DNA of 33,046 nt from Escherichia coli (lineage in GTDB: Bacteria; Pseudomonadota; Gammaproteobacteria; Enterobacterales; Enterobacteriaceae). Of this stretch, positions 32,560 to 32,577 are shown in pieces; within the stretch, counting starts at the first letter, position 1, and every line of letters begins with the position of its first letter. The translations under genes were made by a program, and so were the position numbers. Where the stretch lies: assembly GCF_003334815.1 (NCBI RefSeq), contig NZ_QOWO01000041.1; one strand, written 5' to 3'. A model generated the notes under the pieces. It saw only the letters and a list, made by a program, of their open reading frames with translations. It did no database searches and was not told the DNA's origin.

Positions 32560-32577
32560 TGTTTTATATGCTAAACA
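32560..32577. promoter_or_regulatory. NadR operator palindrome upstream of nadA
   Basis: TGTTTT-ATATGC-TAAACA at 32560-32577, resembling the NAD box TGTTTA-N6-TAAACA; 73 bp upstream of the nadA start. Confidence 0.5.

Follow-up and report, generated by a model that had tools for sequence, protein, structure and literature searches.

The palindrome TGTTTTATATGCTAAACA at positions 32,560-32,577 of the window, by which we mean the whole 33,046-nucleotide stretch of Escherichia coli DNA analysed here, is very probably the primary NadR operator (NAD box) of the nadA-pnuC operon, where it would act by promoter occlusion. On the minus strand, from which nadA is read, its sequence is TGTTTAGCATATAAAACA. 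The consensus match, the uniqueness of the site in the window, its Enterobacterales-limited position and the promoter-like elements beside it come from this analysis; NadR binding, its dependence on NAD and derepression in nadR mutants come from the literature, and the promoter assignment and the occlusion are what we infer.

A known operator in its E. coli setting

NadR, with NAD as co-repressor, binds an 18-bp palindromic operator of consensus TGTTTA-N6-TAAACA (PMC2330245; PMC2330246). [quoted passage not shown] Mutations of nadR in the long-term evolution lines of E. coli lead to higher expression of nadA-pnuC, nadB and pncB (PMC9645810), and nadA-pnuC is described as the most conserved member of the NadR regulon (PMC5343134). 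The NadR operator of nadA-pnuC is already known, and the site studied here is the E. coli ortholog of the characterised one. The comparison with the characterised nadA operator that the first-pass annotation had proposed as a check gave the same gene context, consensus and regulator as in the operator of Salmonella enterica and E. coli, with no substantive difference. The primary footprinting study of NadR is reportedly that of Penfound and Foster in 1999, and a comparative study is said to have been made by Gerasimova and Gelfand in 2005. In the accessible literature we found no binding or footprint data for the exact E. coli box, and searches with the exact box sequences gave no matches.

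The palindrome had been described from the letters alone as TGTTTT-N6-TAAACA, a close match to the NAD box recognised by NadR, lying upstream of nadA-pnuC. Both points hold. The site agrees with the published consensus at 11 of 12 positions, with one mismatch (PMC2330245; PMC2330246), and its arms are perfectly complementary over TTGTTT (32,559-32,564) and AAACAA (32,573-32,578). It begins 90 nt 5′ of the nadA ATG, corresponds to MG1655 positions 781995-782012, and both genes of the operon are confirmed by protein models. The features of this region are the following.

32,560-32,577, no strand assigned: very probable primary NadR operator (NAD box), from consensus match, rarity, matrix score and conservation
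31,444-32,487, minus strand: nadA, quinolinate synthase, first gene of the operon (open reading frame; TIGR00550, 434 bits; RefSeq annotation)
30,687-31,406, minus strand: pnuC, nicotinamide riboside transporter, second gene of the operon (open reading frame; NF011926, 464 bits)
29,749-30,690, plus strand: zitB (open reading frame; curated NCBIfam model)
32,764-32,839: tRNA-Lys, the last of two in the window (tRNA search)
32,733-32,759, minus strand: stem-loop followed by a T run after the last tRNA-Lys, with 11-nt perfect arms AAAAAAGCGCC / GGCGCTTTTTT

The start of pnuC lies 37 nt past the nadA stop. The convergent genes zitB and pnuC overlap at their 3′ ends by 4 bp (30,687-30,690), as they do in MG1655. 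On the other side of nadA, the stem-loop and T run at 32,733-32,759, likely the terminator of the upstream tRNA operon, are the upstream limit of the nadA control region.

Two further members of the regulon in the same genome have boxes of the same 18-bp layout, TGTTTAGTAAATTAAACA at -24 of nadB and TGTTTATTGTACTAAACG at -47 of pncB, and the three boxes have an extended TGTTTA(G/T) half-site in common. The likeness to these boxes, the conservation described below and the literature on NadR binding and derepression all bear out the first-pass proposal of a NadR-type operator, an assignment that is very probable for the E. coli sequence itself.

Taken as a whole, the window resembles E. coli K-12 DNA and runs in the reverse orientation. 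Collinearity with MG1655 extends over positions 7,226-33,046, at 99.96-99.98% identity, and the gene order, including the lysine tRNAs, agrees with the annotations of MG1655 and J53. The nadR gene lies outside the window. MG1655, whose chromosome agrees with the window at 99.98% identity wherever the two share DNA, has an annotated nadR with a full-length, multifunctional product (NF005988, 796 bits, residues 1-409).

MG1655 and J53 have, between nadA and the last tRNA-Lys gene, an RtT-like repeat unit of 156 bp that the window lacks, so that the lysQ-nadA spacer here measures 276 nt instead of 432. The missing unit is flanked by direct repeats (ATAGCAAAAAAGCGCC...GGTGGGTCGTGCAGGAT), and the junction falls at 32,727/32,728, ambiguous within the repeat of about 50 nt. 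Short forms of the spacer also occur in other E. coli genomes, and an identical single-piece match was absent among the matches sampled; the unit may have been lost in a genuine deletion between repeats, or the assembly may have collapsed it. Between the two tRNA-Lys genes, the spacer gives an Rfam RtT RNA match (32,873-33,040, minus strand, 60 bits) and holds a truncated copy of the tRNA-Lys 3′ end (GGTGGGTCGTGCAGGAT).

Positions 1-7,225 are the end of a lambdoid prophage, not collinear with MG1655 and joined to the chromosome between ybhC and ybhB, where lambda has its attachment site. The segment 3,161-7,248 is 98% identical to phage lambda and includes the exonuclease, Ea22, Ea8.5-like, excisionase and integrase genes; positions 1-3,160 gave no match to lambda. 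The host is thus not MG1655 but a strain lysogenic for a lambdoid phage.

Conservation of the box and a putative promoter

For comparison we used 80 nadA loci from contigs of one genome per species, 24 of them from Enterobacterales (spanning Escherichia albertii, Citrobacter, Erwinia, Pantoea, Serratia, Yersinia, Pectobacterium, Providencia, Photorhabdus and Arsenophonus) and 56 from an outgroup (Vibrio, Shewanella, Aeromonas, Pseudoalteromonas, Acinetobacter, Alcanivorax and others). A NAD box with zero to two mismatches is present 81-95 nt 5′ of the ATG in every one of the 24 Enterobacterales loci, and 20 of these boxes have at most one mismatch, whereas none of the 56 non-Enterobacterales loci has a box with fewer than two mismatches. 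The right half-site of the E. coli box is AAAACA instead of the consensus TAAACA, a departure common to 18 of the 24 other boxes. Gene order follows the same division, with pnuC after nadA in 21/24 Enterobacterales loci and in 0/56 outgroup loci. According to published work, the DNA-binding helix-turn-helix domain of NadR is found only in enterobacteria (PMC2330245; PMC2330246), and the confinement of the box to Enterobacterales loci agrees with this restriction, the presence of a helix-turn-helix NadR in the 24 compared genomes being assumed from the literature. The site in the window thus shows every defining feature that can be tested from sequence: an 18-bp repeat, a place in the (putative) promoter region of a NAD gene, and enterobacterial conservation.

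The box is also rare. Two matches with at most one mismatch were observed in the 33-kb window against 0.19 expected from dinucleotide-preserving shuffles, and scaling from these shuffles gives about 0.002 such matches expected in the 276-nt lysQ-nadA spacer. For scoring the window we took the 24 nadA boxes of other genera, without that of E. coli, and derived a symmetrised weight matrix from these alone. The nadA box scored 25.6 bits, and the runner-up anywhere in the 33 kb scored 6.7 bits.

The second one-mismatch box, TGTTTCTTTACATAAACA at 5,246-5,263, lies in the prophage, 50 nt 5′ of an Ea8.5-like open reading frame of 93 amino acids (5,313-5,594). We rejected it as a second NadR target, since it lies in prophage DNA and scores 3.0 bits with the nadA-derived matrix; it is most likely a chance match. 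Its existence does indicate that such matches arise by chance, and the nadA palindrome could in principle be a functionless, AT-rich coincidence of the same kind. This has almost nothing to recommend it given the expectation for the spacer, the gap between 25.6 bits and the 3.0 bits of the prophage box, and the identical position of the box in 24/24 Enterobacterales despite a largely unalignable leader. The conservation data effectively refute the chance reading.

To place the operator relative to transcription signals, we aligned 25 Enterobacterales upstream regions (the E. coli window and the 24 loci). The sequence from the box to the ATG is mostly unalignable between families, while a gap-free conserved block lies 5′ of the box and contains two promoter-like hexamers.

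32,577-32,582, minus strand: putative -10 hexamer TATCTT (alignment), whose final T also opens the NAD box
32,600-32,605, minus strand: putative -35 hexamer GTGACT (alignment), exactly 17 nt upstream of the -10 hexamer

The motif TAT(C/T)TT stands directly 5′ of the box in 23/25 sequences, the variants being TATGAT (locus L023) and CATTTT (locus L020). Every sequence has GA in the GAC core of the -35 hexamer, followed by C in 23/25 and by T in the two Photorhabdus. The distance from the -35 hexamer to the box is constant and free of gaps in 25/25. We infer from this alignment that the conserved block is a weak sigma-70 promoter of nadA-pnuC. A generic sigma-70 scan of positions 32,300-33,046 at a threshold of 9/12 returned no promoter; it missed GTGACT-17-TATCTT because the pair fits just 8/12 consensus positions. 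In the literature searched we found no mapped nadA transcription start, most matches concerning the unrelated NadR and NadA of Neisseria.

With this putative promoter, transcription would start at about 32,570, inside the NAD box, and NadR bound to the box would cover about -7 to +11. Since the box begins at the last base of the -10 hexamer, the mechanism that we propose is occlusion of the -10/start-site region. NadR, described in the literature as a dimer with NAD as co-repressor, would contact the box through its N-terminal helix-turn-helix domain, and its presence would block either RNA polymerase binding or open-complex formation. At high NAD, both de novo quinolinate synthesis and nicotinamide riboside uptake would be switched off. 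At nadB and pncB the arrangement differs: there the boxes lie near the start codon, downstream of apparent -10 hexamers, while that of nadA abuts its -10 hexamer, with about 80 nt of leader after it.

The overlap of the box with the putative -10 hexamer and start site means that some of its conservation could be promoter-related, and a second conserved element is present 62 nt downstream. The palindrome might then be conserved as a core promoter or initiation region, or for another regulator, with NadR acting elsewhere, for example at that downstream box-like element. We consider this improbable. Both half-sites are conserved, including the distal AAAACA, which lies past any promoter element; the conserved sequence is that of the published NadR consensus and of the boxes found at nadB and pncB in the same genome; the conservation ends exactly at the taxonomic limit of DNA-binding NadR; and the downstream element scores 3.5 bits against 25.6 for the nadA box.

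Weak boxes and the nadA leader

Matrix scans around the primary operator of E. coli and of the other loci returned the following weaker sites.

32,498-32,515, no strand assigned: weak NAD-box-like element, CGTTAAGCCTGTAAAACG as read on the nadA strand, the second-best matrix match in the spacer (3.5 bits)
About 72-74 nt upstream of the primary nadA boxes: weak boxes in loci L011, L012, L013, L014, L015, L021 and L022
Locus L083, 1,323-1,340: weak NAD-box-like site

In the window, the element at 32,498-32,515 lies 62 nt downstream of the nadA box, just 5′ of the ribosome-binding region or overlapping it. Of 220-nt neighbourhoods drawn at random from the window, just 2.2% score as high as its 3.5 bits. 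The best secondary match falls at +62 or +63 in 14/25 nadA loci, in Enterobacteriaceae, Erwiniaceae and Providencia, and the +62 site is the second-best match in the nadA loci of Photorhabdus and Arsenophonus; by family, the downstream site is that of Enterobacteriaceae, Erwiniaceae and Morganellaceae. In Yersiniaceae and Pectobacteriaceae (Pectobacterium, Serratia, Yersinia, Acerihabitans, Brenneria and Rahnella), the best secondary match is found 72-74 nt upstream instead. The sequence GTTAAG...AAACGAGA is conserved in 12/13 aligned nadA leaders. The downstream element may be an auxiliary operator; it may also be an unrelated leader element, because its sequence-conserved core departs consistently from the NadR half-site and overlaps the ribosome-binding region.

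A similar survey was made for nadB with six loci, that of E. coli and five metagenomic ones from a DNA-pattern scan. That scan of metagenomes for perfect boxes gave mostly chance matches, and its usable yield was the five nadB loci and one pnuC locus; a search for NadB homologs returned only E. coli and Shigella proteins and hence no cross-genus comparison. The nadB loci have a perfect box at about -20 to -26 and a weaker box 73-74 or 52-53 nt upstream of it, with scores of 5.4-8.2 bits for the weaker box in 4/6 loci. At E. coli nadB the auxiliary box is clear (7.3 bits, 74 nt upstream), whereas the nadA candidate is weaker and lies downstream; at E. coli pncB the matrix scan found no auxiliary box. 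In two metagenomic loci, L102 and L115, which are more distant and enterobacterial-like, a third NAD-box-like site lies about 148-149 nt upstream of the primary nadB box. In L102 this third site is TGTTTGGTATAAAAAACA, with two mismatches, and it may serve a divergent gene or be a remote operator.

These weak boxes raise the idea that NadR operators are bipartite, a strong palindrome being accompanied by conserved weak boxes at nadA and nadB. We put this forward tentatively and think it rather unlikely to be correct. Spaced at about 5, 6 or 7 helical turns, the sites would suit a NadR oligomer that binds cooperatively or loops the DNA, an argument from phasing that was made post hoc. Bipartite NadR operators find no mention in the accessible literature, outside which the two most relevant papers lie.

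The nadA leader also contains a hairpin, CCGAUAACAGCG...CGCUAAUGUCGG followed by UUUU, at 32,521-32,553 on the minus strand. Its stem is retained with altered sequence in Citrobacter and one Enterobacter, and in single-sequence folds z-scores of about -1.8 to -2.1 are reached only in Escherichia, Citrobacter and one Enterobacter. RNAalifold found no consensus structure for 13 nadA leaders from 13 genera, and Rfam with permissive thresholds returned only tRNAs and the RtT repeat, with nothing in the nadA leader. We set aside a conserved RNA element in this leader, the fold signal being limited to the closest genera.

The presence of this separate hairpin, and a start near 32,570 that would leave the palindrome partly transcribed, bring up a role for the inverted repeat as an RNA hairpin at the 5′ end of the nadA mRNA, affecting its stability or translation. 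We find such a role scarcely credible. The left arm of the box would be absent from the RNA, because the putative start lies within the box; the arms are A/U-rich and form just 5-6 pairs; the box is conserved as a sequence, with compensatory changes absent; and the Rfam search left the leader without a match.

Relation to other repressors and significance

The NadR operator has parallels in systems where an enzyme of cofactor metabolism doubles as repressor. In BirA/bioO and other 'trigger enzyme' repressors, a cofactor enzyme with a helix-turn-helix domain likewise represses the operon for its own cofactor, and operators of the BirA/bioO type are likewise palindromic and overlap the promoter (PMC8249747; PMC2330246). 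BirA and NadR nonetheless belong to unrelated protein families and bind unrelated operator sequences, and the likeness is one of analogy only. Other bacterial lineages have their own repressors of NAD biosynthesis genes, NiaR, NrtR and NadQ (PMC2330245; PMC2330246; PMC5343134), which differ from NadR in protein family, motif and effector. The meningococcal NadR/NadA pair of Neisseria, a MarR-family protein and the adhesin it regulates, has only the names in common with the E. coli pair.

Our results confirm a textbook regulatory site. Their main use is to validate pattern recognition from the letters alone, which proved correct, if ordinary, in this case. They add a little to what was known, in that the cross-genus footprint shows the NAD box adjoining the -10 hexamer of a putative promoter that is weak and exceptionally well conserved. 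The in-phase auxiliary sites are the one possibly new lead; if real, they would sharpen the picture of NAD sensing by this enzyme-repressor and of the way in which it turns NAD synthesis off.
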